This document shows positions 9 through 10,928 of a stretch of DNA of 64,000 nucleotides, piece by piece. How positions within the stretch are numbered: the stretch's first letter is position 1; each line of letters starts with the position of its first letter. The translations under genes were made by a program, and so were the position numbers. The DNA is from Patescibacteria group bacterium (GTDB lineage Bacteria; Patescibacteriota; Patescibacteriia; UBA10025; JAHIVO01). The stretch covers positions 558,503-622,502 of the forward strand of contig JBAZWB010000001.1 of NCBI GenBank assembly GCA_041660605.1. Reading direction: 5' to 3'. The notes beneath the pieces are model-generated. The model had not been told where the DNA came from. It made no database searches and saw nothing but the letters and a program-made list of their open reading frames with translations.

Positions 9-1883
9 TTACAATAGACTTATCGGGTCGCGGTCAATTTGCCAGTCATTTGGTATTTTTGCTATTAATGAACGCAGGCCGGTCTTTTCAAAATCATGGA
101 AAAATTTAACAACCAGATACATCTGCCACTTTCCGCCAGTATAGGGTTTTAAAGGGGTAATAATGGAAATATCCTTTATAATAACCCTCAATTTATTATA
201 TGTTTGTTTTACTTCATTCAGGCAAGCCTGCTTATCGGCATTTTTGTAAGTGAACTTTATCAATCTGCAAAATGGGGGATAATGGTACTCAAGCCTTTCA
301 TGAAGCTCTCGTTCGTAAAATTTATCGTAACGGCCATCATTTAAAGAATTAATTGCCAAATGATCCGGATTATATGTTTGTAATATTATCCTGCCCTGGC
401 ATAAATATTTAATTTTAGAAAGCATTTGCCAGGTTTTTTCTGCAGCCATAAAATCAGGCAAATAAAGGAATGAGTCAGCCGAAATGATACCGGCCAGTGA
501 GATAGTTTCCCAGTCTAGAATATCAAAGGCCATTTCTGTGCCGATGATTATTTCAAAATTATTTGGGATGTTAATTTTTTCCGTATCTTTATCAAGCCTG
601 AATATTTTTTTGTCAGGCCAGCATTTTTTTACCTCATGCTCGACTTTCTGCGTACCGCTGCCGATAAATTTAAAAATTATTCCGGAACATTTTTTGCAAA
701 AAGGAGGCAGATCAGCCTTTCTATTGCAGCTGTGACAAAATAAAAAATTTTCATGCTGGTGAAAAGCAAAAGGCAGCTGGCAATCAGAGCATTTCAAAAC
801 TTCGCCGCAATCCCGGCATAACACTGTTGAAGAACTCCCTTTTTTATTTATGAAAAGAAATATTTTTTTGCGGTTTTTTAAATTTTGATTGACAGCTTCT
901 ATTAAATCTTCCGAAAGTTGCTGGTAATTGCCTTTTTTACGTTCATTTTTTAAATTAATTATCTCCACCGTTTTTCCCTGGTTTTTTGGATGGCAGGTAA
1001 TAACCCCCTTTTTTTTGTACTGCTCAAATGTACTGACTGTAGGAGCGCAGCTTAATTTAAGTAGTTTGCATTGATAAATCTCAGATAATTGCTCTGCTAC
1101 CAGACGCGCATCAAATCTGGGATTTTGATCAGCCTGTTTATGATTTTGATTTTCTTCCTGATCGAGAATTATAAGATCAGGATTTTTTACCGGCGCAAAA
1201 AGCGCCAGTTTCGTTCCGATTATCAGTTTTACCTGGCCAGTCAGAGTTTGATTGTAATTATAGTAAAATTCATTGTTACTAAGCTGACTATGGAAAATTG
1301 CTGTTTTTCCCTTTACCCGGGCTGGAAGCATGTTTGAATATCTGTATATATCATTAATTTTTGGGCAAATTAATAAAATTGTTCCGGCTATTTTTTTTAT
1401 ACACCAATATAACATTTGAGTATATTGCTCACCGGATGCCGGCCAAAATAGAAAATTCTTATCATCTGCATCCGTGACTTTTTTTAGAAAATCTTTTAAT
1501 TCTGGCGCTAGATCAGGCTGCCAAGAGCTTCCGATATCATAAACAACCGTTTTTAATTTCCTTTTTGGAATAGCCGGGAGCATCATTTTTATAACTGTGC
1601 CAGTTGAAACAAAATAATATCTGGAAAGCCATTCAGCCAGTATGATTTGTTCATTGGTCAATATTGGATCTTCCTGGATGATATCGGCCACCTCTTTTAT
1701 TTTTTTACCGGCGATAGCGGTTTGTTTTAATCTGATAACCACGCCTTCGATAAGGGTCTTTCTGAAGGGGATTGATACCAGATAGCCGACTTTCATTGTT
1801 TTAGCCAGGCGTTCGGGAATTTGGTAGTCAAATACTCCCATGTATTTTGGGAAGCGCCGTGATAAGATAATTTCTGCGTACAT
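9..1883 (-). CDS. priA: Primosomal protein N' (PriA replication-restart helicase)
   Basis: 624 aa. Cys-rich zinc-binding insert (CRDCGEVLKCSDCQLPFAFHQHENFLFCHSCNRK...CKKCSG) between helicase lobes, typical of PriA. DExH-like helicase layout. Confidence 0.75.
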   Translation of the reverse strand: MYAEIILSRRFPKYMGVFDYQIPERLAKTMKVGYLVSIPFRKTLIEGVVIRLKQTAIAGKKIKEVADIIQEDPILTNEQIILAEWLSRYYFVSTGTVIKMMLPAIPKRKLKTVVYDIGSSWQPDLAPELKDFLKKVTDADDKNFLFWPASGEQYTQMLYWCIKKIAGTILLICPKINDIYRYSNMLPARVKGKTAIFHSQLSNNEFYYNYNQTLTGQVKLIIGTKLALFAPVKNPDLIILDQEENQNHKQADQNPRFDARLVAEQLSEIYQCKLLKLSCAPTVSTFEQYKKKGVITCHPKNQGKTVEIINLKNERKKGNYQQLSEDLIEAVNQNLKNRKKIFLFINKKGSSSTVLCRDCGEVLKCSDCQLPFAFHQHENFLFCHSCNRKADLPPFCKKCSGIIFKFIGSGTQKVEHEVKKCWPDKKIFRLDKDTEKINIPNNFEIIIGTEMAFDILDWETISLAGIISADSFLYLPDFMAAEKTWQMLSKIKYLCQGRIILQTYNPDHLAINSLNDGRYDKFYERELHERLEYHYPPFCRLIKFTYKNADKQACLNEVKQTYNKLRVIIKDISIITPLKPYTGGKWQMYLVVKFFHDFEKTGLRSLIAKIPNDWQIDRDPISLL

Positions 1884-1913
1884 TTATTAGCAGTTAATTT
1901 ACTTAGAACGAAA

Positions 1914-2432
1914 TCATTTGTGCCTTTCCACGGTAAATCTGAATAGCTCGATTTTTTTATCGCTAGGATCAATATTGCCTTTTTCGCAGCAGATCAGAAA
2001 CTGCTCTTCTGCGGTTTCAACACCGATATCGGGCAGCAGTAAACCCGTGTGTCTGGAGTCGGACCTGACAATTAATCCGTATTTTTCAGGATCGTGATTT
2101 TCTAATGTAAGAATTTTTTCAGGACTGCTTAAAACGTCGACGTTAATATCTAGATTTTCCAGCTCATCTTTGGCCAGGGGAGGGAAACGCGGATCACTGA
2201 AGGCAGCCGAAACTGCATTATTGATTATTTCTGCGGCCATATTTGGCTCAGTAGGCCGGAAAGTTCCGATACATCCGCGCAGGGAATTATCCGATTTATT
2301 GTGTAATGATACAAATACTCCCGCTTGTTTATTCAAAAAAACTTCAGGTAAATTATGCGGGCATGCCAGCATCTTCCCATTTGTTAAATAATGCCTGATC
2401 GAGCTTATTGCCAAATTTGTATAAGTGTCCAT
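1914..2432 (-). CDS. AMMECR1 domain protein (AmmeMemoRadiSam system protein A-like)
   Basis: 172 aa. LRGCIGTF signature of AMMECR1 family. Clustered with radical SAM and MEMO/LigB-like genes. Confidence 0.7.
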   Translation of the reverse strand: MDTYTNLAISSIRHYLTNGKMLACPHNLPEVFLNKQAGVFVSLHNKSDNSLRGCIGTFRPTEPNMAAEIINNAVSAAFSDPRFPPLAKDELENLDINVDVLSSPEKILTLENHDPEKYGLIVRSDSRHTGLLLPDIGVETAEEQFLICCEKGNIDPSDKKIELFRFTVERHK

Positions 2433-2503
2433 GGCCTTATTTTAGCATTATTAGCACAAATAGAAAAAGCCGTAATTAGCGGCTTTTTCAAAATAAATGT
2501 ATT

Positions 2504-3187
2504 TTACAGGTTTGAAAGTAATTTTTTTGAAATAGTGTATTCCGGTTTTACTAACTTCGACAATGTTTGACTGGAAAATAGCTTAGCCAGTAAACTGACC
2601 AGAGAATTCACCGAAACATAGCTTAAAGCAATACCGCCGGTAAACATTACCCTTTCCAGGAAGACTACCGGAATTAGAGCTATCCATACTTCAGACGGCA
2701 GGTTAAACGCATATAAAAAGGCGACCGAACCGACAGCGTGCGCCGTGAAAGTAGCGCCTAAACTGTTAAAGACCAGGCTCCTTTTTATAAATAGAGTGGC
2801 CACTGGTATCAGCCAGTAAAGTGAAAAAAACCAGGCGCCACGGCCGTTTGGGTGCAAATTAAAAAGTATTATGCAGATAATCGGCACGATGGCGATGAGG
2901 CCCCTCTTTTTCCTAAGCCCTAAATAAAAAGCTGCAAAAGCCAACGGGAAGAAACGAACGATAGTAATAAAATCGAGAGTTTGGTGAGTTATAAGTGCAT
3001 TAGTAAATTTAACGGCTATGACAGCTATTGCGCCCCAGATTGAAGCTAGAAACATGCCGATAGCAGGCGCAAAAAAATCAAATAAGCTGAATTTCTGGCC
3101 TGAGCCTACGATATTAGTAAAGGGTATTTGCAATAGCAAAAAACCCAAAATGGTAAACACAGCAATAAACAGAAACTTCTTTTTCAT
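2504..3187 (-). CDS. Polytopic membrane protein (about 6-7 TM), function unknown
   Basis: 227 aa, hydrophobic throughout. Sits inside the AMMECR1/MEMO/rSAM cluster. Confidence 0.45.
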   Translation of the reverse strand: MKKKFLFIAVFTILGFLLLQIPFTNIVGSGQKFSLFDFFAPAIGMFLASIWGAIAVIAVKFTNALITHQTLDFITIVRFFPLAFAAFYLGLRKKRGLIAIVPIICIILFNLHPNGRGAWFFSLYWLIPVATLFIKRSLVFNSLGATFTAHAVGSVAFLYAFNLPSEVWIALIPVVFLERVMFTGGIALSYVSVNSLVSLLAKLFSSQTLSKLVKPEYTISKKLLSNL

Positions 3188-3209
3188 AATTTTTATTAAA
3201 TATTAATAA

Positions 3210-4007
3210 TTATCTTGGAAGCTGGAAATTCACTACTAAATATCCTACACCAAACGGCCCTTCATAAGACAGGATTTCCGGAGTATATTCCGTGGTGTTC
3301 AAAATGCCCAGTAAAATTATCAGTGAGCGTAAGCCGCATTCACCGGCTTCATCTATAAAATCTTCATCCAGAGATTTTATGCCGTTGTGATCTCTAGATT
3401 TTATTTTTTCAATTATCGTTTCGTCGAATTTTTTTGCCCAATGGGAGTATCCGGCCGGAGCATCGGTTGTCAGACGATGAGACATGTCTCCGGAGGCGAT
3501 TACGGCAATTCTCTTTGTATCATTGATAATATCTTCCTGAAGCTTACGTCCTAAATCGTAATGTGCCTGATAGTCGAGCAGGGAATAGGAAATGGGTACG
3601 ATTTTTATTTTATTACTATCAAATAATTTAGTCAAATAATACAGCGGGACGCCAACGCCATGGTCAAGTTTTTCCTGGTGTGTCAGCACAACCGGAATTT
3701 TTGTTTCCAAAATTTCTTTATAATGATGTATCAAGCCTATATCTCCATTCAGCGGGATTTTTATTGACAAATCGCCGAAATCATTGAAATTAATTTCAAA
3801 TTTTGGCGACATATTTATGCTAAAAGCTTCAGGTATAATCTGACCGTGCGGAGAAATCGTAATAATTGTCTCCGGCTTGGAGGCATAAAGCTCTTCCGCC
3901 AGTTTTTGCATTGCTTTAACGGTTTTTTCCACAAATTTCAGATTTTCTTTACCGATTTCCGGGACAATTAATGGCGGATGCGGGGTTAAGGCGCTGAAGA
4001 CTAGCAT
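3210..4007 (-). CDS. MEMO1 / class III extradiol dioxygenase subunit B superfamily protein (AmmeMemoRadiSam system protein B candidate)
   Basis: 265 aa. N-terminal HPPLIVPE (H-x-P), ISPHGQ and SGDMSH motifs resemble the His-ligand motifs of the LigB/MEMO superfamily. Genomic context with AMMECR1 and rSAM. Confidence 0.5.
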   Translation of the reverse strand: MLVFSALTPHPPLIVPEIGKENLKFVEKTVKAMQKLAEELYASKPETIITISPHGQIIPEAFSINMSPKFEINFNDFGDLSIKIPLNGDIGLIHHYKEILETKIPVVLTHQEKLDHGVGVPLYYLTKLFDSNKIKIVPISYSLLDYQAHYDLGRKLQEDIINDTKRIAVIASGDMSHRLTTDAPAGYSHWAKKFDETIIEKIKSRDHNGIKSLDEDFIDEAGECGLRSLIILLGILNTTEYTPEILSYEGPFGVGYLVVNFQLPR

Positions 4008-4010
4008 AAG

Positions 4011-5411
4011 TTATTGTTGATTAATGTCTATAGGGTCACCTTCAAGATGGATTAAAACGGCTTTATCGGTAGTCCAAATGATGTTTTTCCATTGAAATCC
4101 CAGAGCATCGAATGTTTCCTTGCTGGCAATGCCATGGCGTATGCCATTATTAACAAAATAAACACCATGCATTCCAGGCGAAGTGATTAATTCTCCATCT
4201 TTGAAAGTTATAGGATCACCCTGCGGATACTGATCAATCTCGCTTTGTTCTACCACCACGGGCTTGCGGGTAGCAAATCTGTTTTTAAGAATTTCTTTTG
4301 ACCAGATTGATTGTCTGACTCCGTTCTCCACATAAGATATTCCGCCGGTTTCTTTGGACTGCAATAAAACTCCGGTTGGGTAGATACTGCGCATATTTAT
4401 ATTTGGACCGAAGCTATAGGCCGATAATTCAGATTCACTGGCTTTAATAATCTCTTCAGGGTTGAAGCCAATTTCACGAAAAACATCAGGCGACTCAATA
4501 TATCGGCGCTGATCCCCGTCAATCAGATATACCCGGCCAGTTTCATTGGATAGTATCAACGAATAGTTGGCAAACTTGATCGGCGCGCCATCTGGATAAG
4601 CGTTAATATCACTCAGAGAAACCAGAATTATTTTTGATGGATCAAAACGCGAGACCAGGGCAGAACGTGATAAAAATGGCCGTCGTTTGCCGTCTTTAAT
4701 TAAATATACTCCATTTTCTCCCTCAACCTGAACAAGCGAACCGTCGGGATAATGCTTAGTGAACCATTGGTTCCAAAATTTCCAAATGTTAAAATTGGCA
4801 TTATATACATAGGGAGTGTAAGTATATAATGCAGCTGTGGCGTTATTAGCGGGAGTTACTTGATAGCCGTCACCGGTAGTTTTGGTGATTCCGGGACCCC
4901 AGCCGGTAAATGTCCTGCCATATAACTCGAGATCAGCCAAGTAGCTTTCCCTGATTTTTCGGGCTGACCATAAGACTTGATTATAGAAACCCTTATATTT
5001 TGCCACTGCCGGGTCATCTTTTGAGCAGCTGTCGCAGACAGCATAGCCGGTTGCCCAATCAAGCTGAGCTTGACTAGGAGTACTGTCTGTAATCAGACTT
5101 TGTTCTATCTGCATCCTGACCATCAGATATTGGGGATTAATAGTCCACTGGCGTCCGACTTCGTATAGTATTTCAGCAGCTGTTTTTTCATTCCCATTCG
5201 CGTCAGTAGTTTTATATGTTCCCAAAGCGCCTTGTCCGGATAAAAAGTTTTGAATCCTGGCCAACGAAGTGGCATTGGCATTAGTCATATCAATGTCCGA
5301 AATAATGTGATTTGGGTTGAAAGTTACGGCCAAAGCAGTTACCGGAAACATGAAAAAAGCCATGATGCAAATAATAGCGTTTTTTATTATTTTTTTGCTT
5401 GGCATAATCAA
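4011..5411 (-). CDS. Secreted protein with N-terminal signal peptide, about 200-aa N-domain and four tandem about 50-aa repeats
   Basis: 466 aa. Hydrophobic signal (IICIMAFFMFPVTALA). Repeats GVYLIKDGKRRPF / GRVYLIDGDQRRYI / GISYVENGVRQSI / GVYFVNNGIRHGI, each followed by a GF..I.. motif. Confidence 0.45.
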   Translation of the reverse strand: MIMPSKKIIKNAIICIMAFFMFPVTALAVTFNPNHIISDIDMTNANATSLARIQNFLSGQGALGTYKTTDANGNEKTAAEILYEVGRQWTINPQYLMVRMQIEQSLITDSTPSQAQLDWATGYAVCDSCSKDDPAVAKYKGFYNQVLWSARKIRESYLADLELYGRTFTGWGPGITKTTGDGYQVTPANNATAALYTYTPYVYNANFNIWKFWNQWFTKHYPDGSLVQVEGENGVYLIKDGKRRPFLSRSALVSRFDPSKIILVSLSDINAYPDGAPIKFANYSLILSNETGRVYLIDGDQRRYIESPDVFREIGFNPEEIIKASESELSAYSFGPNINMRSIYPTGVLLQSKETGGISYVENGVRQSIWSKEILKNRFATRKPVVVEQSEIDQYPQGDPITFKDGELITSPGMHGVYFVNNGIRHGIASKETFDALGFQWKNIIWTTDKAVLIHLEGDPIDINQQ

Positions 5412-6454
5412 TTAAATAATGGTTTTATCTTATATTGGCACTTAGGGCATTGGCCTTTATTATCGTATCTATCTATATCATAACCAAAACGTCTGATAAC
5501 AATTGTAGCACATTTTGGGCAATATGTGTTTTCAGATTCAAGACCCGGTACATTGCCGGTATAAACGTAATTTAAGCCGGCTTTTTTGCCGATATCCCAG
5601 GCTTTTTTCAGAGTTATTGCTTTGCTTTCTGGCAAATCCTGCAGTTTATATGAGATTTCCGGAGAAAATGAGGAAATATGCCAGGGTGTATCCGGGCCTA
5701 GTTCAGTTAAAATGAAGTCAGCCATTTGACTAAACATTTTTTCATCATCGCTGAGAGTGGGAATAGAAAGCGTGGTAATCTCTATCCAAATGCCGAATTT
5801 TTTCAGCGTTTTTAAATTTTTTAAAATCGGCTGAAGCTTACCGCCGCAGATTTTTAGATAGTCTTTGTCATTAAAAAATTTTAAATCAACATTAATTGCG
5901 TCAAGATAGGGGATGATCAGCTCCAGCGTTTTTTCTGACATATAGCCGTTTGACACCCAGACGTTTTTTATTTTTTTTGATCTAGCCAATTTCATGCAGT
6001 CAAGAGCGTATTCCATCCAGATAGTCGGTTCAGTATAAGTGTAAGCAATGCTCTGGCAATTATTTTTCAAAGCATCGTTGATTACCTGAACTGGCGGCAG
6101 GTTTTCGCCGCTGATTTTCAGATCAGTATAGCCGGTTTGTTTTGAAGCCTGGGAGATTTGCCAGTTCTGACAATTATCACAGCGAAAATTGCACCCAACG
6201 GTGGCTATAGATAAGGCTTTAGAGCCCGGTAAAAAATGAAAAAATGGCTTTTTTTCGATGGGATCAATAGCTTCGGAGATAGCTTTGCCATATACTAACA
6301 GATAAAGTTTCCCATTGTGATTTTCCCGGACCCCGCAAATTCCCCGATGATTAACAAAAATAGCGCAGTGATGGTTGCAGACATGGCATTGCACTTTATT
6401 ATTTTCTAGCTTTTCATAAAGAAGAGCCTCTTTCATGATAATATATTTTAACAT
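5408..6454 (-). CDS. AmmeMemoRadiSam system radical SAM enzyme
   Basis: 348 aa. N-terminal Cys cluster (CHVCNHHCAI...CGVREN) followed by the CNFRCDNC (CX3CX2C) radical SAM motif. Architecture typical of the PFL-activase-like rSAM partner of AMMECR1/MEMO. Confidence 0.8.
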   Translation of the reverse strand: MLKYIIMKEALLYEKLENNKVQCHVCNHHCAIFVNHRGICGVRENHNGKLYLLVYGKAISEAIDPIEKKPFFHFLPGSKALSIATVGCNFRCDNCQNWQISQASKQTGYTDLKISGENLPPVQVINDALKNNCQSIAYTYTEPTIWMEYALDCMKLARSKKIKNVWVSNGYMSEKTLELIIPYLDAINVDLKFFNDKDYLKICGGKLQPILKNLKTLKKFGIWIEITTLSIPTLSDDEKMFSQMADFILTELGPDTPWHISSFSPEISYKLQDLPESKAITLKKAWDIGKKAGLNYVYTGNVPGLESENTYCPKCATIVIRRFGYDIDRYDNKGQCPKCQYKIKPLFN

Positions 6455-6526
6455 ATTCTAATTGGTTGATAAAGCGTAATAATCAGGGTTTTTGTAAAAA
6501 AATGCTTATTAAAGTATAATTTAGCT

Positions 6527-7072
6527 ATGAAAAAAAGGGTCTTTATTGCCATTGATCTGCCGGAAATTTTGAAGCAGGAAATAAAGAAACTGCAGATTAA
6601 ACTGCAAAAATTTAGTTGGCCAGTACGCTGGGAAGAAAAAGAGAAATTGCATTTAACACTTCGTTTTTTAGGTTTAATTGATGAACACCAGATATCAAGC
6701 ATAAGCAGGATCGTCAAAGAAGCAGTAGCTAAATCCGAATCATTTCAACTGTCAGTCGATGGTTTTATCGCATATCCTAATCTAAGATTCCCCAGCGTAA
6801 TTTGTTTGCTGATTGAAGATAGTAAAACCCTTTATAGTTTACAAGGCGAAATTGACAGTACCATTGAAAAACAGAATATCGGTGAAAAAGAACGGCATCC
6901 TTTTTCCGCGCACATTACCATAGGACGAGTAGGAAAAATAAATACAAACTTTCACGCTTTGAACAAAATAGAATTTAAATCAAAATTTGATGTTCAATCA
7001 ATGGAAATAATGGAAAGTAAATTAGATAATGAAGGCAGTAAATATTTTATTTTAAAATCATTCAAATTATAA
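6527..7072 (+). CDS. thpR: RNA 2',3'-cyclic phosphodiesterase / 2'-5' RNA ligase (2H phosphoesterase)
   Basis: 181 aa. Two H-x-T-x motifs (HLTLRFLG and HITIGRV) diagnostic of LigT/ThpR. Confidence 0.75.
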   Translation: MKKRVFIAIDLPEILKQEIKKLQIKLQKFSWPVRWEEKEKLHLTLRFLGLIDEHQISSISRIVKEAVAKSESFQLSVDGFIAYPNLRFPSVICLLIEDSKTLYSLQGEIDSTIEKQNIGEKERHPFSAHITIGRVGKINTNFHALNKIEFKSKFDVQSMEIMESKLDNEGSKYFILKSFKL

Positions 7073-7075
7073 AAA

Positions 7076-7819
7076 ATGGAAATTAGAATATTAGGCGTTA
7101 AAATTGATAATTTTTCTTTAGCTGAAGTTTTGCAAAAAGTAAAAAGTTTTTTAATCAGCAAAAATCAGCATTATATTGTCACCACTAATCCCGAATTTAT
7201 TATGGCCAGCCGCCATGACGATGAATTTAGGAATATTTTGAACAAAGCTGATTTATCCGTGGCTGACGGGATTGGCATTAAATTTGCCGCTAAACATTTG
7301 GGTAATAAATTAAAGGAACGGATAAGTGGTGTTGATTTAATATGGGAAATTTGCCGGATCGCAGAACAAGAAAAAAAATCTGTTTTTTTACTGGGGTCCA
7401 AAAGGGGAGTGCCGGAAACTGCGGCTGTTAAAATTATTCAAAAATTTCCAGATTTAAAGTTAGCCGGCGTTGAGTGTGGTTACCGGCGTTGGCACAGACA
7501 CATGAAAGATGACAAATTAGTGGAAATAATCAACCGCCGCAAGCCGGATGTTTTATTTGTTGCTTTTGGGCAGGTAAAGCAGGAAAAATGGATATATCAT
7601 AATTTGCCTAAAATGCCCTCAATTAAGCTGGCTATGGGCGTTGGCGGGTCATTTGACTATATTTCCGGCAAAACGCGCCGTGCCCCTAAATGGATGCGAA
7701 ATATGGGTCTGGAATGGTTTTTCCGCCTTATTTACCAACCCTGGCGTCTACCGCGTATAATTACCGCAGTATTGAAGTTCAGTCTGGCAGTCAGAAAGTC
7801 AAAAAAACATGAAATTTAA
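7076..7819 (+). CDS. WecB/TagA/CpsF family glycosyltransferase
   Basis: 247 aa. ILGVKIDNFSLAEV...YIVTTNPEFIM N-terminus typical of TagA/WecG. Confidence 0.7.
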   Translation: MEIRILGVKIDNFSLAEVLQKVKSFLISKNQHYIVTTNPEFIMASRHDDEFRNILNKADLSVADGIGIKFAAKHLGNKLKERISGVDLIWEICRIAEQEKKSVFLLGSKRGVPETAAVKIIQKFPDLKLAGVECGYRRWHRHMKDDKLVEIINRRKPDVLFVAFGQVKQEKWIYHNLPKMPSIKLAMGVGGSFDYISGKTRRAPKWMRNMGLEWFFRLIYQPWRLPRIITAVLKFSLAVRKSKKHEI

Positions 7820-8477
7820 ATATTTTGATATTATTTTAGGGTTGTTTGTGGCAGTATTGCTTATTTCAAACATTGCTTCCACAAAAATATTGAAATTAGG
7901 CCCATTTACCTTTGATGGAGGAACTATTTTATTTCCAATAATTTACATTTTTGGCGATATTTTAACTGAAGTGTACGGCTACCGGGCCTCACGCAGGGTT
8001 ATCTGGACAGGTTTTTTTAGCGCTTTACTCATGTCAATTATCTTTATTATTGTTGGCAGGCTACCAGCAGCTGATGGTTGGGTGAATCAGGATGCTTACA
8101 ATAAAATTTTAGGCCTGACTCCCAGAATTGTCACCGCCTCCTTAATTGCATATTTTTGTGGAGAATTTTCCAATTCATTTATTTTAGCCAAAATGAAAAT
8201 ATTTACTAAAGGAAAATATCTTTGGACCAGAACAATCGGTTCAACAATTGTTGGAGAAGGCGCTGATACTATATTATTTGTAGTCATTGCGTTTTTTGGC
8301 ATTCTGCCAATGAGCTTGCTTCTGGCAATAGTTATTTCAAACTACCTTTTTAAAGTCGGATTTGAAATAATTTTAACGCCGGCCACTTACAAAATAGTAG
8401 GTTGGCTGAAAAGAAAAGAAAATTCGGATGTTTATGATACGCAGACAAATTTCAATCCGTTCTCGATAAAAAAATAA
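7809..8477 (+). CDS. yhhQ: Queuosine precursor transporter (YhhQ/DUF165 family)
   Basis: 222 aa. FTFDGGTILFPIIYIFGDILTEVYGY matches the conserved YhhQ N-terminal motif. About 6 TM. Confidence 0.7.
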   Translation: MKFKYFDIILGLFVAVLLISNIASTKILKLGPFTFDGGTILFPIIYIFGDILTEVYGYRASRRVIWTGFFSALLMSIIFIIVGRLPAADGWVNQDAYNKILGLTPRIVTASLIAYFCGEFSNSFILAKMKIFTKGKYLWTRTIGSTIVGEGADTILFVVIAFFGILPMSLLLAIVISNYLFKVGFEIILTPATYKIVGWLKRKENSDVYDTQTNFNPFSIKK

Positions 8478-8599
8478 ACACGATAAAAATTTTCAAATTT
8501 AGTGAAATACCGCACCCCTTCACGATTTCGTATTAATAAGACCGTGCTAATAAATAAATTAAATTAATTAAGAAATAATTGTTTTTAATAATGTCCATC

Positions 8600-8628
8600 T
8601 TGACAGATTTTTCTTATAATAATATACT
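8600..8628 (+). promoter_or_regulatory. Sigma70-type promoter TTGACA-17-TATACT
   Basis: TTGACA at 8600-8605, 17-nt spacer, TATACT at 8623-8628. No ORF follows for about 250 nt. Confidence 0.4.
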
Positions 8629-8890
8629 AAAATTGACAATTGAATAGACGGTAAGTGTTTTCGGAAGCAGTCAAAAAACACTTAAAACAAAAACCAATAT
8701 CCGATAAAGTAGTTGGTTCTTTTACATTCGAAATTAATAATATTTTGCTAGGTGGGACCACTTCTTTGTCTGAGCTGGTATCAAGCAAGGTAGCAGGGAA
8801 AAAAAATTCAGGATTTCCTAGTATCTTTTCTTGAACCGGACCCCTTGGTTTTAAAAAGGCCAGGCCTCAAAAGGAGCTATTCAAAAGGTC

Positions 8891-9206: not shown

Positions 9207-10928
9207 ATGAAAAGCAGGCTTACATTAATAATTATTATTAGCATAGCCTTTCTTTGGCTGCCTTTAAAATCAGTAAAAGCAGCTGAAATTGTTGATTCTT
9301 TTGAGACCAATATTGAGATCAATAAAGACAGCAGTTTTAAGGTAACTGAGACAATTAATTATGATTTTGGAGATGGCAGCAGCCATGGTATTTACAGGAA
9401 GATCCCTTATAGTTACTCACGAAATTCTGCTAAATACAATATCAGGATGAAGGTTTTATCGGTTACCGATGAAAATGGGAATGCCTGGGAATACACTACC
9501 TCAAGGCTAGGCGGGGAATTATCGATAAAAATTGGAAATTCCAACGTCTATGTGACCGGTAAACACCAATTTAATATTATTTATGAAGTCCAAAGGGCAA
9601 TCAACTATTTTTCAGATCATGATGAACTGTACTGGAATGTAACCGGCGATAAATGGGAAGTGCCGATCAGCTCAGTCGTAGCGCAAATCTTCGTTCCAGG
9701 GAGCGTCAATCAATCAGATTTCAAAATGACATGCTATACTGGTGCATTTGGTTCAGCCGCTCAGAACTGTCAAAATTCAGTTACCGGTGATAACATTGAT
9801 TTCAATGCCGTTGATCTCGGTGCGTATGAGAACCTGAGCGTGGTCCTTGGTTGGCCCAAAGGGATTACTAATAAACCGACATCCAGCCAGCAGGTTGGCT
9901 GGTTCCTTGCAGATAATTGGCCGGTTTTTATCCCATTGTTTTTTCTCATAATTATGTTTTATTTATGGTACACCCGCGGCCGTGACCCGAAAGGTAAAGG
10001 CACTATAGTTCCACAGTATGAACCTGTGGATAAAATCACTGCTGGAGAGTTAGGGACGGTGGTTGATGAAAGAGTTGACTTAAAAGATATCTCTGCCACA
10101 ATAATCCAGTTGGCCGTTAAAGGTTATTTAAAAATCCGGGAGGTCGAAGAAAAAAAGCTATTTAAGAATTCTAAAAATTACGATCTGATAAAGCTAAAGG
10201 AAGCTGATGATAAGTTATTGAAATTTGAAAAATTAGTTTTCAATGGAATTTTTGATTCAAAAAAATCAATAAACATATCTGATTTAAAAAATAAATTCTA
10301 TGTACATCTTAAGGATATTAAACAATCAATGTATGATCTAGTAGTGACAGACGGTTATTTCCCATCCGATCCGGAATCGGTCAGAAGGATTTACTTAGGC
10401 ATATCTGCTTTGATCCTGCCAATTGGTTTTTTTATCTTCATCGGTTTTTCTAACTCCTTAGCCGGATTTAGCATGATCGCTATTGGTATGATCGCTATGA
10501 TATTCTCCCGCGCCATGCCCAGGAGAACGAAGAAAGGTGCCGAAGCGCACGAACATATACTTGGATTCAAATGGTTTTTATCAGTGACCGAAACCGAAAG
10601 ATTAAAGTTTCATAATGCGCCAGATAAATCGCCCAAACAATTTGAAGAATTTTTACCATACGCCATGGCTCTGGGTGTGGAAAACGAATGGGCTAAACAG
10701 TTTGCTGGCATTTATTTGACTCCGCCTGATTGGTATGAGGGACGGGTTGGCACTGCTTTTGGTGCCTGGTATTTAGCCAGTTCACTTGGATCATTTTCCA
10801 CCAATATGAATCAGGCAATGGTTGCTTCTCCCAGAGGAACCTCAACGGCTGGTTTTGGCGGCTCTGGTTTTGGCGGCGGAGGCTTTTCTGGCGGTGGTTT
10901 TGGCGGCGGGGGAGGGGGAAGCTGGTAA
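9207..10928 (+). CDS. DUF2207 domain membrane protein with C-terminal Gly-rich tail
   Basis: 573 aa. Signal peptide, large extracytoplasmic domain, TM segments, GGSGFGGGGFSGGGFGGGGGGSW tail typical of the DUF2207 family. Confidence 0.65.
   Translation: MKSRLTLIIIISIAFLWLPLKSVKAAEIVDSFETNIEINKDSSFKVTETINYDFGDGSSHGIYRKIPYSYSRNSAKYNIRMKVLSVTDENGNAWEYTTSRLGGELSIKIGNSNVYVTGKHQFNIIYEVQRAINYFSDHDELYWNVTGDKWEVPISSVVAQIFVPGSVNQSDFKMTCYTGAFGSAAQNCQNSVTGDNIDFNAVDLGAYENLSVVLGWPKGITNKPTSSQQVGWFLADNWPVFIPLFFLIIMFYLWYTRGRDPKGKGTIVPQYEPVDKITAGELGTVVDERVDLKDISATIIQLAVKGYLKIREVEEKKLFKNSKNYDLIKLKEADDKLLKFEKLVFNGIFDSKKSINISDLKNKFYVHLKDIKQSMYDLVVTDGYFPSDPESVRRIYLGISALILPIGFFIFIGFSNSLAGFSMIAIGMIAMIFSRAMPRRTKKGAEAHEHILGFKWFLSVTETERLKFHNAPDKSPKQFEEFLPYAMALGVENEWAKQFAGIYLTPPDWYEGRVGTAFGAWYLASSLGSFSTNMNQAMVASPRGTSTAGFGGSGFGGGGFSGGGFGGGGGGSW

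Follow-up and report, generated by a model that had tools for sequence, protein, structure and literature searches.

Do genes that are interleaved with an AMMECR1/Memo-LigB/radical SAM (S-adenosylmethionine) system take part in its function? This question is raised by a locus in a metagenome-assembled genome of a Patescibacteria group bacterium (assembly GCA_041660605.1, contig JBAZWB010000001.1, positions 558,503 to 622,502), a stretch of 64,000 nucleotides (nt) that is called the window here and within which all positions are given. At 1914-6454, five co-directional genes on the minus strand encode, in the order of reading, a radical SAM enzyme (rSAM), a secreted or membrane-anchored protein with four repeats, a protein of the LigB/Memo superfamily, a polytopic membrane protein and an AMMECR1-family protein, and are followed by the gene for the PriA helicase (9-1883, minus strand). 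The system is conserved from bacteria to humans, the human AMMECR1 and MEMO1 are linked to disease, and to our knowledge no reaction is known for it. The original prediction had described a trio (AMMECR1, the LigB/Memo-type protein and rSAM) that is split by the two other genes, which the open reading frames confirmed, and had suggested that the inserted genes hint at an envelope-associated substrate. Our analysis makes it rather probable that a LigB-type AMMECR1/LigB-like/rSAM system is interleaved here with two genes from other functional modules.

Throughout positions 9-6454, little DNA separates one gene from the next. The secreted-protein gene is followed after 3 nt by the LigB-like gene, and the next gaps are 22 nt to the membrane gene, 71 nt to AMMECR1 and 30 nt to PriA. 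The nearest named relatives of the window proteins are Candidatus Kerfeldbacteria. Since the identical order from rSAM to PriA recurs in at least nine other species genomes, the five-gene arrangement is not due to chance. The common direction, the tight packing and the conserved order would fit an explanation in which the membrane protein and the secreted repeat protein are dedicated partners of the trio and handle its envelope-associated substrate. The evidence on each of the two genes, given below, makes this very unlikely.

The trio itself was examined with profile hidden Markov models. The rSAM (5408-6454, minus strand, 348 amino acids (aa)) passed the curated cut-off of TIGR04337 with 335.6 bits against 220, covering profile positions 4-333 of 349, and matched PF04055 with 67.6 bits. 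It contains an N-terminal CHVCNHHC...C cluster, the SAM-cluster motif CNFRCDNC and a C-terminal CPKC...CPKC motif; a search for a solved relative found none. AMMECR1 (1914-2432, minus strand, 172 aa) reached 126.3 bits with TIGR04335 (AmmeMemoRadiSam protein A, cut-off 99) and 152.8 bits with PF01871, and has a conserved cysteine within LRGCIGTF. Its solved relatives PH0010, ST0229 and MM0484 are all labelled as hypothetical. The membership of both proteins in the AmmeMemoRadiSam families had been predicted correctly, and the motifs that had been quoted (LRGCIGTF, here within SLRGCIGTF, in AMMECR1, CNFRCDNC with the cysteine cluster in rSAM, H-x-P in the middle protein) were all present.

For the middle protein (3210-4007, minus strand, 265 aa), the family placement had been called ambiguous, and the profile comparison bore this out and resolved it. 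PF02900 (LigB) matched over the full length with 151.2 bits, PF01875 (Memo) with 46.9 bits. The low cut-off of TIGR04336, which is 26, was passed with 43.7 bits, although the match is confined to profile positions 103-250 of 270; the public annotation reads 'AmmeMemoRadiSam system protein B'. The first histidine motif is TPHPP (H-x-P), as in LigB. Candidate metal or catalytic residues are H10, H54, D115, H116, H177, E223, C224 and E249, among which H10, H54, H177 and E249 are fully or almost invariant, as expected for a PF02900 protein with a His/His/Glu-type site. Judged by these matches, the protein is of the LigB type rather than the Memo type and is the 'B' partner of AMMECR1. No second Memo/LigB paralog was found across the 64 kb of the window.

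The strong match to PF02900, by far the best in Pfam, raises the question whether the protein could be an ordinary LigB/DODA dioxygenase that cleaves aromatic rings and is merely adjacent to AMMECR1 and rSAM, a possibility that the original prediction had named. The closest solved sequences are indeed 4,5-DOPA dioxygenases, together with the archaeal LigB-like TK2203. However, all dioxygenase equivalogs of NCBIfam stayed far under their cut-offs (HpaD, for example, with 44.8 bits against 316), and no aromatic-degradation genes were found nearby. An exhaustive HMMER search returned 2451 representative homologues. Among the best 150, which were inspected for length, 16 were 433-477 aa long, and all ten of these long relatives that were scanned were fusions of a LigB-like domain with AMMECR1. 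The fusions align to the window protein over the whole LigB-like domain with 39-45% identity, and the fusion genes adjoin a full-length homologue of the window rSAM (L087-89, L170/171, L173 and one JGI contig; L numbers denote the loci compared). Because its relatives are fused to AMMECR1 and adjoin the same rSAM, the LigB-like protein is not an unrelated dioxygenase. The plain dioxygenase was rejected on these fusions and on the co-variation described next, and its probability is close to nil.

The co-variation was followed in 49 loci that contain the LigB-like gene, could be evaluated on both sides and were collected with the secreted protein as anchor. With presence scored within about 8 kb of the locus, rSAM and AMMECR1 were both found in 19 loci, neither was found in 26, rSAM alone in 4, which came from the metagenome sample, and AMMECR1 alone in none. 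The residues H10, H54, D115, H116, H177, E223 and E249 of the LigB-like protein were all kept in 18 of 18 loci with both partners, compared to 3 of 26 with neither. In the latter, H116 was mostly changed to tyrosine and E223 to glutamine, alanine, valine or leucine. That these residues are kept or lost along with rSAM and AMMECR1 speaks against the ordinary dioxygenase and independently supports, at the level of sequence, a functional link between all three proteins of the trio. The full residue set was also kept without rSAM and AMMECR1 at the locus in close relatives (L004, L008, L009, L012, L014, L015, L017, L021, L084 and L120), where the partners have either been lost recently or are encoded elsewhere in the genome.

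A diverged subtype of the LigB-like protein was observed in L081, L091-L096 and L104-L163, which have no rSAM or AMMECR1. Here, H116 is replaced by tyrosine, E223 is also replaced and H54 or H177 is sometimes lost. The gene of this subtype still lies directly behind the secreted-protein gene, and its function may be changed or decaying.

Taken together, the three genes share one strand and a stretch of 4.5 kb, rSAM and AMMECR1 co-vary, and fusions stand beside rSAM elsewhere. The trio is genuine and already described, here in a LigB-type form. A ring-opening dioxygenase and a radical SAM enzyme were linked to AMMECR1 in 2007, in a paper that also described the LigB::AMMECR1 fusion and proposed an uncharacterised RNA base modification (Balaji & Aravind, PMC2034487). 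The window has the same three protein families, and the identity of 39-45% noted above is to the N-terminal domain of the 433-477-aa fusions that adjoin rSAM. In contrast to the published neighbourhood, the LigB-like protein and AMMECR1 are encoded by separate genes that are 0.8 kb apart with the membrane gene between them, and rSAM is split from the LigB-like gene by the 1.4-kb secreted-protein gene. A comparison with the AmmeMemoRadiSam system (TIGR04335/04336/04337) gives a similar picture: rSAM and AMMECR1 pass the cut-offs and the middle protein passes the low one, but the B component is LigB-type rather than Memo-type, the three genes are interrupted by others, and a terminator-like hairpin lies ahead of AMMECR1, between the B and the A gene. 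The system is a known one; what is new is its arrangement at this locus.

In the cytoplasm, the rSAM, which resembles PflA-type activases, would generate a 5'-deoxyadenosyl radical, and AMMECR1 with its conserved cysteine and the LigB-like metalloenzyme with its intact His/His/Glu-type site would act in a shared pathway, the chemistry of which can only be proposed. A 2019 study of PCAD-Memo by Burroughs and colleagues in JBC reportedly linked the Memo clade, among other things, to isoprenoid modification. For testing, the system is now defined more sharply: in Patescibacteria the B component is LigB-type, and rSAM and AMMECR1 come and go as a unit, except for the 4 loci with rSAM alone.

The membrane gene (2504-3187, minus strand, 227 aa) was considered as a partner of the trio, as the original prediction had suggested. 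In the independent survey that was anchored on the secreted protein, it was present in the block in none of the 49 evaluable loci and is therefore a sub-clade-specific insertion, found only in the Kerfeldbacteria-like sub-clade of the window and unrelated to the trio. The original prediction had itself named lineage-specific insertion as an outcome that would speak against it. The neighbourhoods of the membrane gene itself were counted in the best 80 loci, and there it lies near trio genes only in the approximately 25 closest relatives. In other phyla and in archaea, the family follows FolC or CofE-like genes instead. Outside Patescibacteria, the LigB::AMMECR1 fusion and rSAM stand without the membrane gene and also without the secreted-protein gene. 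The proposed partnership did not hold up, and with it the hint from this gene at an envelope-associated substrate lost its support. This removes a false lead, since the system does not include the membrane protein.

The DNA between the membrane gene and AMMECR1 also argues against dedicated partners. A consensus scan located an intrinsic-terminator-like hairpin on the minus strand at 2463-2489, 15 nt past the stop codon of the membrane gene, with the stem GAAAAAGCCG-loop-CGGCTTTTTC and a T-rich tail. A hairpin and T-run with another stem sequence were found at the corresponding site in 15 of 17 related loci at -8 kcal/mol or below, compared to 2 of 102 random windows. Since this conserved hairpin follows the membrane gene, the sequence suggests that the genes from rSAM through the membrane gene and those from AMMECR1 to priA are separate or read-through transcription units. 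The membrane gene would end its transcription unit at the conserved terminator, and AMMECR1-priA would probably form a separate or read-through unit.

What does the membrane protein do? It had no match in Pfam or NCBIfam, and sequence searches of PHROGs and the PDB (phmmer and profile) returned no usable match either. The family has 1072 homologues with the invariant motifs H112-P-x-G-R, G-x-T-F-T-A-H and E-R. When each species was represented by a single genome, the family turned up in 405 of them. Among its hosts are Parcubacteria, Microgenomates, Saccharibacteria and the DPANN archaea Micrarchaeota and Iainarchaeota. An AlphaFold model of the window protein (mean predicted local distance difference test, pLDDT, 88) was compared with the PDB by Foldseek, and the top 16 matches were all S components of energy-coupling factor (ECF) transporters, namely FolT, RibU, ThiT and BioY. 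These matches are weak (E 0.06-1.9) with a target-normalised TM-score of up to 0.63, and the lower-ranked matches are noise. PF12822 did not match the window protein; among 25 family members, one came near with 27.8 bits against the cut-off of 30.7. The window protein differs from the ECF S components by an extra N-terminal helix and a beta-hairpin and has no significant sequence similarity to them. No EcfT/EcfA or ATP-binding cassette (ABC) family was found among the conserved neighbours of the membrane gene, a search that did not extend to the whole genome.

The neighbours of the family point to a cofactor. A FolC gene (TIGR01499, 353-355 bits) neighbours the membrane gene in 22 of the 80 loci and a gene of the CofE/F420-ligase family (PF01996) in 26. 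The two sets of loci are disjoint, and most of these neighbours are directly adjacent to the membrane gene. For one CofE-like neighbour, the closest NCBIfam entry was 'putative folate metabolism gamma-glutamate ligase'. The folT gene clusters with folC in Firmicutes. In Chlamydia, a CofE homologue (FolC2) replaces FolC (PMC1971073). By its predicted fold and its adjacency to FolC or a CofE/FolC2-type ligase, the membrane protein is probably a solitary importer of the S-component-like kind, for folate or a related cofactor that can be glutamylated. The imported cofactor would be trapped by the FolC or CofE/FolC2-type gamma-glutamyl ligase that is encoded alongside in other lineages. The family, so far unannotated and common to Patescibacteria and DPANN archaea, is a strong candidate for the uptake of a folate-type cofactor. 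Such uptake would serve auxotrophic, host-dependent organisms, and FolC and the CofE/FolC2-type ligase appear to be interchangeable partners.

Two further arrangements of the membrane gene were observed. In a sister clade (L014-L028, for example L014 at 6309-8687) the order is LigB-CofE-membrane, with a CofE-like gene in between that is absent from the clade of the window. In three Micrarchaeota loci, the membrane and FolC genes have a full-length rSAM gene of the AmmeMemoRadiSam type about 5 kb away on the other strand (L069, 13772-14863; L070, 14406-15419; L072, 11047-11430), with about 540 bits to the profile of the Patescibacteria rSAM. No AMMECR1 or LigB-like gene was seen in the fetched stretches of these three loci.

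The secreted-protein gene (4011-5411, minus strand) behaves differently from the membrane gene. It was analysed in 95 loci with enough downstream sequence, and in 92 of them the LigB-like gene lies directly downstream, with or without rSAM and AMMECR1. The junction has a median gap of 10 nt with eight overlaps of 4 nt, and the two genes stay adjacent even where the identity of the secreted protein has fallen to about 40%. It had been considered that the inserted genes might be lineage-specific insertions; for the secreted-protein gene, this was not the case. The LigB-like gene is almost never parted from this wall-hydrolase-like gene, which is a second point that can now be tested sharply, and the near-obligate coupling is the one really unexplained feature of the locus.

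One explanation is that the secreted protein and the LigB-like protein are a true functional pair, engaged for example in wall turnover or in muropeptide or lipid-carrier processing, with rSAM and AMMECR1 as optional components and the membrane gene unrelated. The conserved and very short or overlapping junctions are in its favour, as is the persistence of the adjacency where rSAM and AMMECR1 are missing (26 of 49 loci); the junction is the most conserved one in the region. On the other hand, the two proteins belong to different compartments, as the secreted protein has a signal or anchor sequence and the LigB-like protein has none. In other phyla, no homologue of the secreted protein was found near the LigB-like domain, including the examined loci with the LigB::AMMECR1-rSAM system outside Patescibacteria. 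In addition, partnerless LigB-like proteins have lost H116 and/or E223 while the invariant residues of the secreted protein stay fixed, a pattern that points to independent constraints on the two proteins. An Amidase_3 gene upstream of the fusion (L087, L170) was considered as a link to peptidoglycan and rejected, as it belongs to the rplM-rpsI-cwlD block that is syntenic in Firmicutes. We regard the functional pair as a minor possibility.

The wider neighbourhood suggests another origin of the coupling. PriA was found within 5 kb downstream in 59 of 76 loci, and the block usually runs on into priA-def-fmt, a backbone that is conserved in relatives and starts with priA in the window. PriA-Def-Fmt lies downstream of the block in L081-L085, and in L082/83 the secreted-protein gene stands next to priA-def-fmt without any trio gene. 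The trio also accommodates other genes: in 8 loci, a ClpB gene lies between rSAM and the secreted-protein gene, and in loci of the Falkowbacteria type (L085, 111-6981; L086, 1853-6990) it is a full ClpB gene. Insertion of a housekeeping gene into the trio thus does occur, which argues against dedicated partners. The secreted-protein gene would belong to a housekeeping super-operon together with the LigB-like gene, priA, def and fmt, and the fixed adjacency would most likely come from transcriptional or translational coupling and not from shared chemistry. Operon or translational coupling in such a frozen super-operon is the explanation that we favour over an envelope link and consider fairly probable; a true envelope link between the secreted protein and the LigB-like enzyme appears doubtful.

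Several observations weigh against the reading of three separate modules. The secreted-protein gene is joined to the LigB-like gene more constantly (92 of 95) than the LigB-like gene is to PriA (59 of 76), which goes beyond the usual passive synteny. In every Patescibacteria locus that has rSAM, the secreted-protein gene lies between rSAM and the LigB-like gene. The absence of rSAM and AMMECR1 was scored near the locus and not genome-wide. The two assignments by fold, to the ECF S components (best E 6e-2) and to the glycoside hydrolase family 73 (GH73; best E 4e-3), have weak E-values without sequence-level support, and no FolC or CofE-like gene was found within the 64 kb of the window. It is unlikely, yet worth considering, that the secreted protein is a true partner of the LigB-like enzyme and that this enzyme, with rSAM and AMMECR1 where they are present, acts on an envelope precursor or a wall fragment. 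If true, the near-universal coupling would offer a first physiological approach to what the Memo/LigB-AMMECR1-radical SAM system does. An envelope-associated substrate, reached via the secreted hydrolase-like protein, is a conjecture.

The secreted protein itself was analysed by its predicted structure. Its N-terminus (MPSKKIIKNAIICIMAFFMFPVTALAV) resembles a signal peptide or membrane anchor, and four repeats of about 60 aa (residues ~219-466) can be aligned to one another. The AlphaFold model (pLDDT 90) shows each of them as a beta-rich module of similar build, which confirms the four repeats that had been predicted. No sequence match was found in Pfam, including PF01832, in NCBIfam or in the PDB (phmmer and profile searches), nor to an annotated PHROG. 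By fold, the repeats matched EccB1, EccB3 and EccB5 with E-values of 2e-8 to 7e-5 and probabilities of 0.99-1.0; at the level of sequence, PF05108 gave weak matches in 11 of 33 family members. Like EccB, the window protein combines such repeats with an N-terminal anchor, but no type VII secretion genes were found. The N-terminal domain matched the glucosaminidases AtlE, LytB, Atl and SagB (E 4e-3 to 9e-2, probability 0.9-1.0). By this match, it resembles the GH73 autolysins of S. aureus (AtlE/Atl/SagB) and S. pneumoniae (LytB) in its predicted fold, with an invariant glutamate in a helix motif, and differs from them by the absence of a sequence match to PF01832 or any PDB chain. The glutamate E101 in Q-x-E-Q-S is invariant whether the trio is present or not.

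At the confidence that fold comparison allows, the secreted protein is a putative wall-bound peptidoglycan hydrolase. It would act as an extracytoplasmic lysozyme/GH73-like enzyme that is held on the wall by the four EccB/PlyCB-like repeats. The family has at least 2056 homologues, and all labels that name an organism are Patescibacteria/Parcubacteria or an unclassified 'bacterium'. A pair of the repeats (encoded at 4011-4750) matched phrog_9616, a family of unknown function, with 92.8 bits. The repeats are thus shared with phage proteins, which would fit a wall-binding module.

The start of the secreted protein affects one detail of the locus. An overlap of stop and start codons at 5408-5411 had been described between rSAM and the 466-aa open reading frame. 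It exists for the TTG start, but not for the ATG at 5405, which is favoured by the family alignment and by the public annotation (464 aa, the more likely length). With the ATG, a spacer of 2 nt follows the stop codon of rSAM (5410-5408), and the packing is tight with either start.

Just upstream of the rSAM start, a match to a sigma-70-like promoter (TTATCA-16-TAAAAT with TG) is present on the minus strand at 6445-6472. It is a consensus match only, and promoter-like matches were no more frequent in the region than the shuffle expectation.

Several of the Patescibacteria-type loci (L001, L002, L010, L011, L013 and others) have the record title 'uncultured Gammaproteobacteria bacterium' and L025 is titled 'Pirellulales'; such titles look unreliable as taxonomy.

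On the plus strand, genes for a LigT-like 2'-5' RNA ligase/phosphoesterase and a WecG/TagA glycosyltransferase (6527-7819) diverge from the rSAM gene. In relatives (L081, L082, L086), WecG is syntenic, as is LigT in some loci. The two genes are followed by a gene for a Vut_1/YhhQ-type uptake transporter for a vitamin (queuosine precursor) at 7809-8477 (plus strand; PF02592, 180 bits), a second putative salvage transporter less than 5 kb from the block. Further along the plus strand, an open reading frame at 9207-10928 encodes a membrane protein of 573 aa with a signal peptide and a long glycine-rich C-terminal tail (GGSGFGGGGFSGGGFGGGGGGSW).

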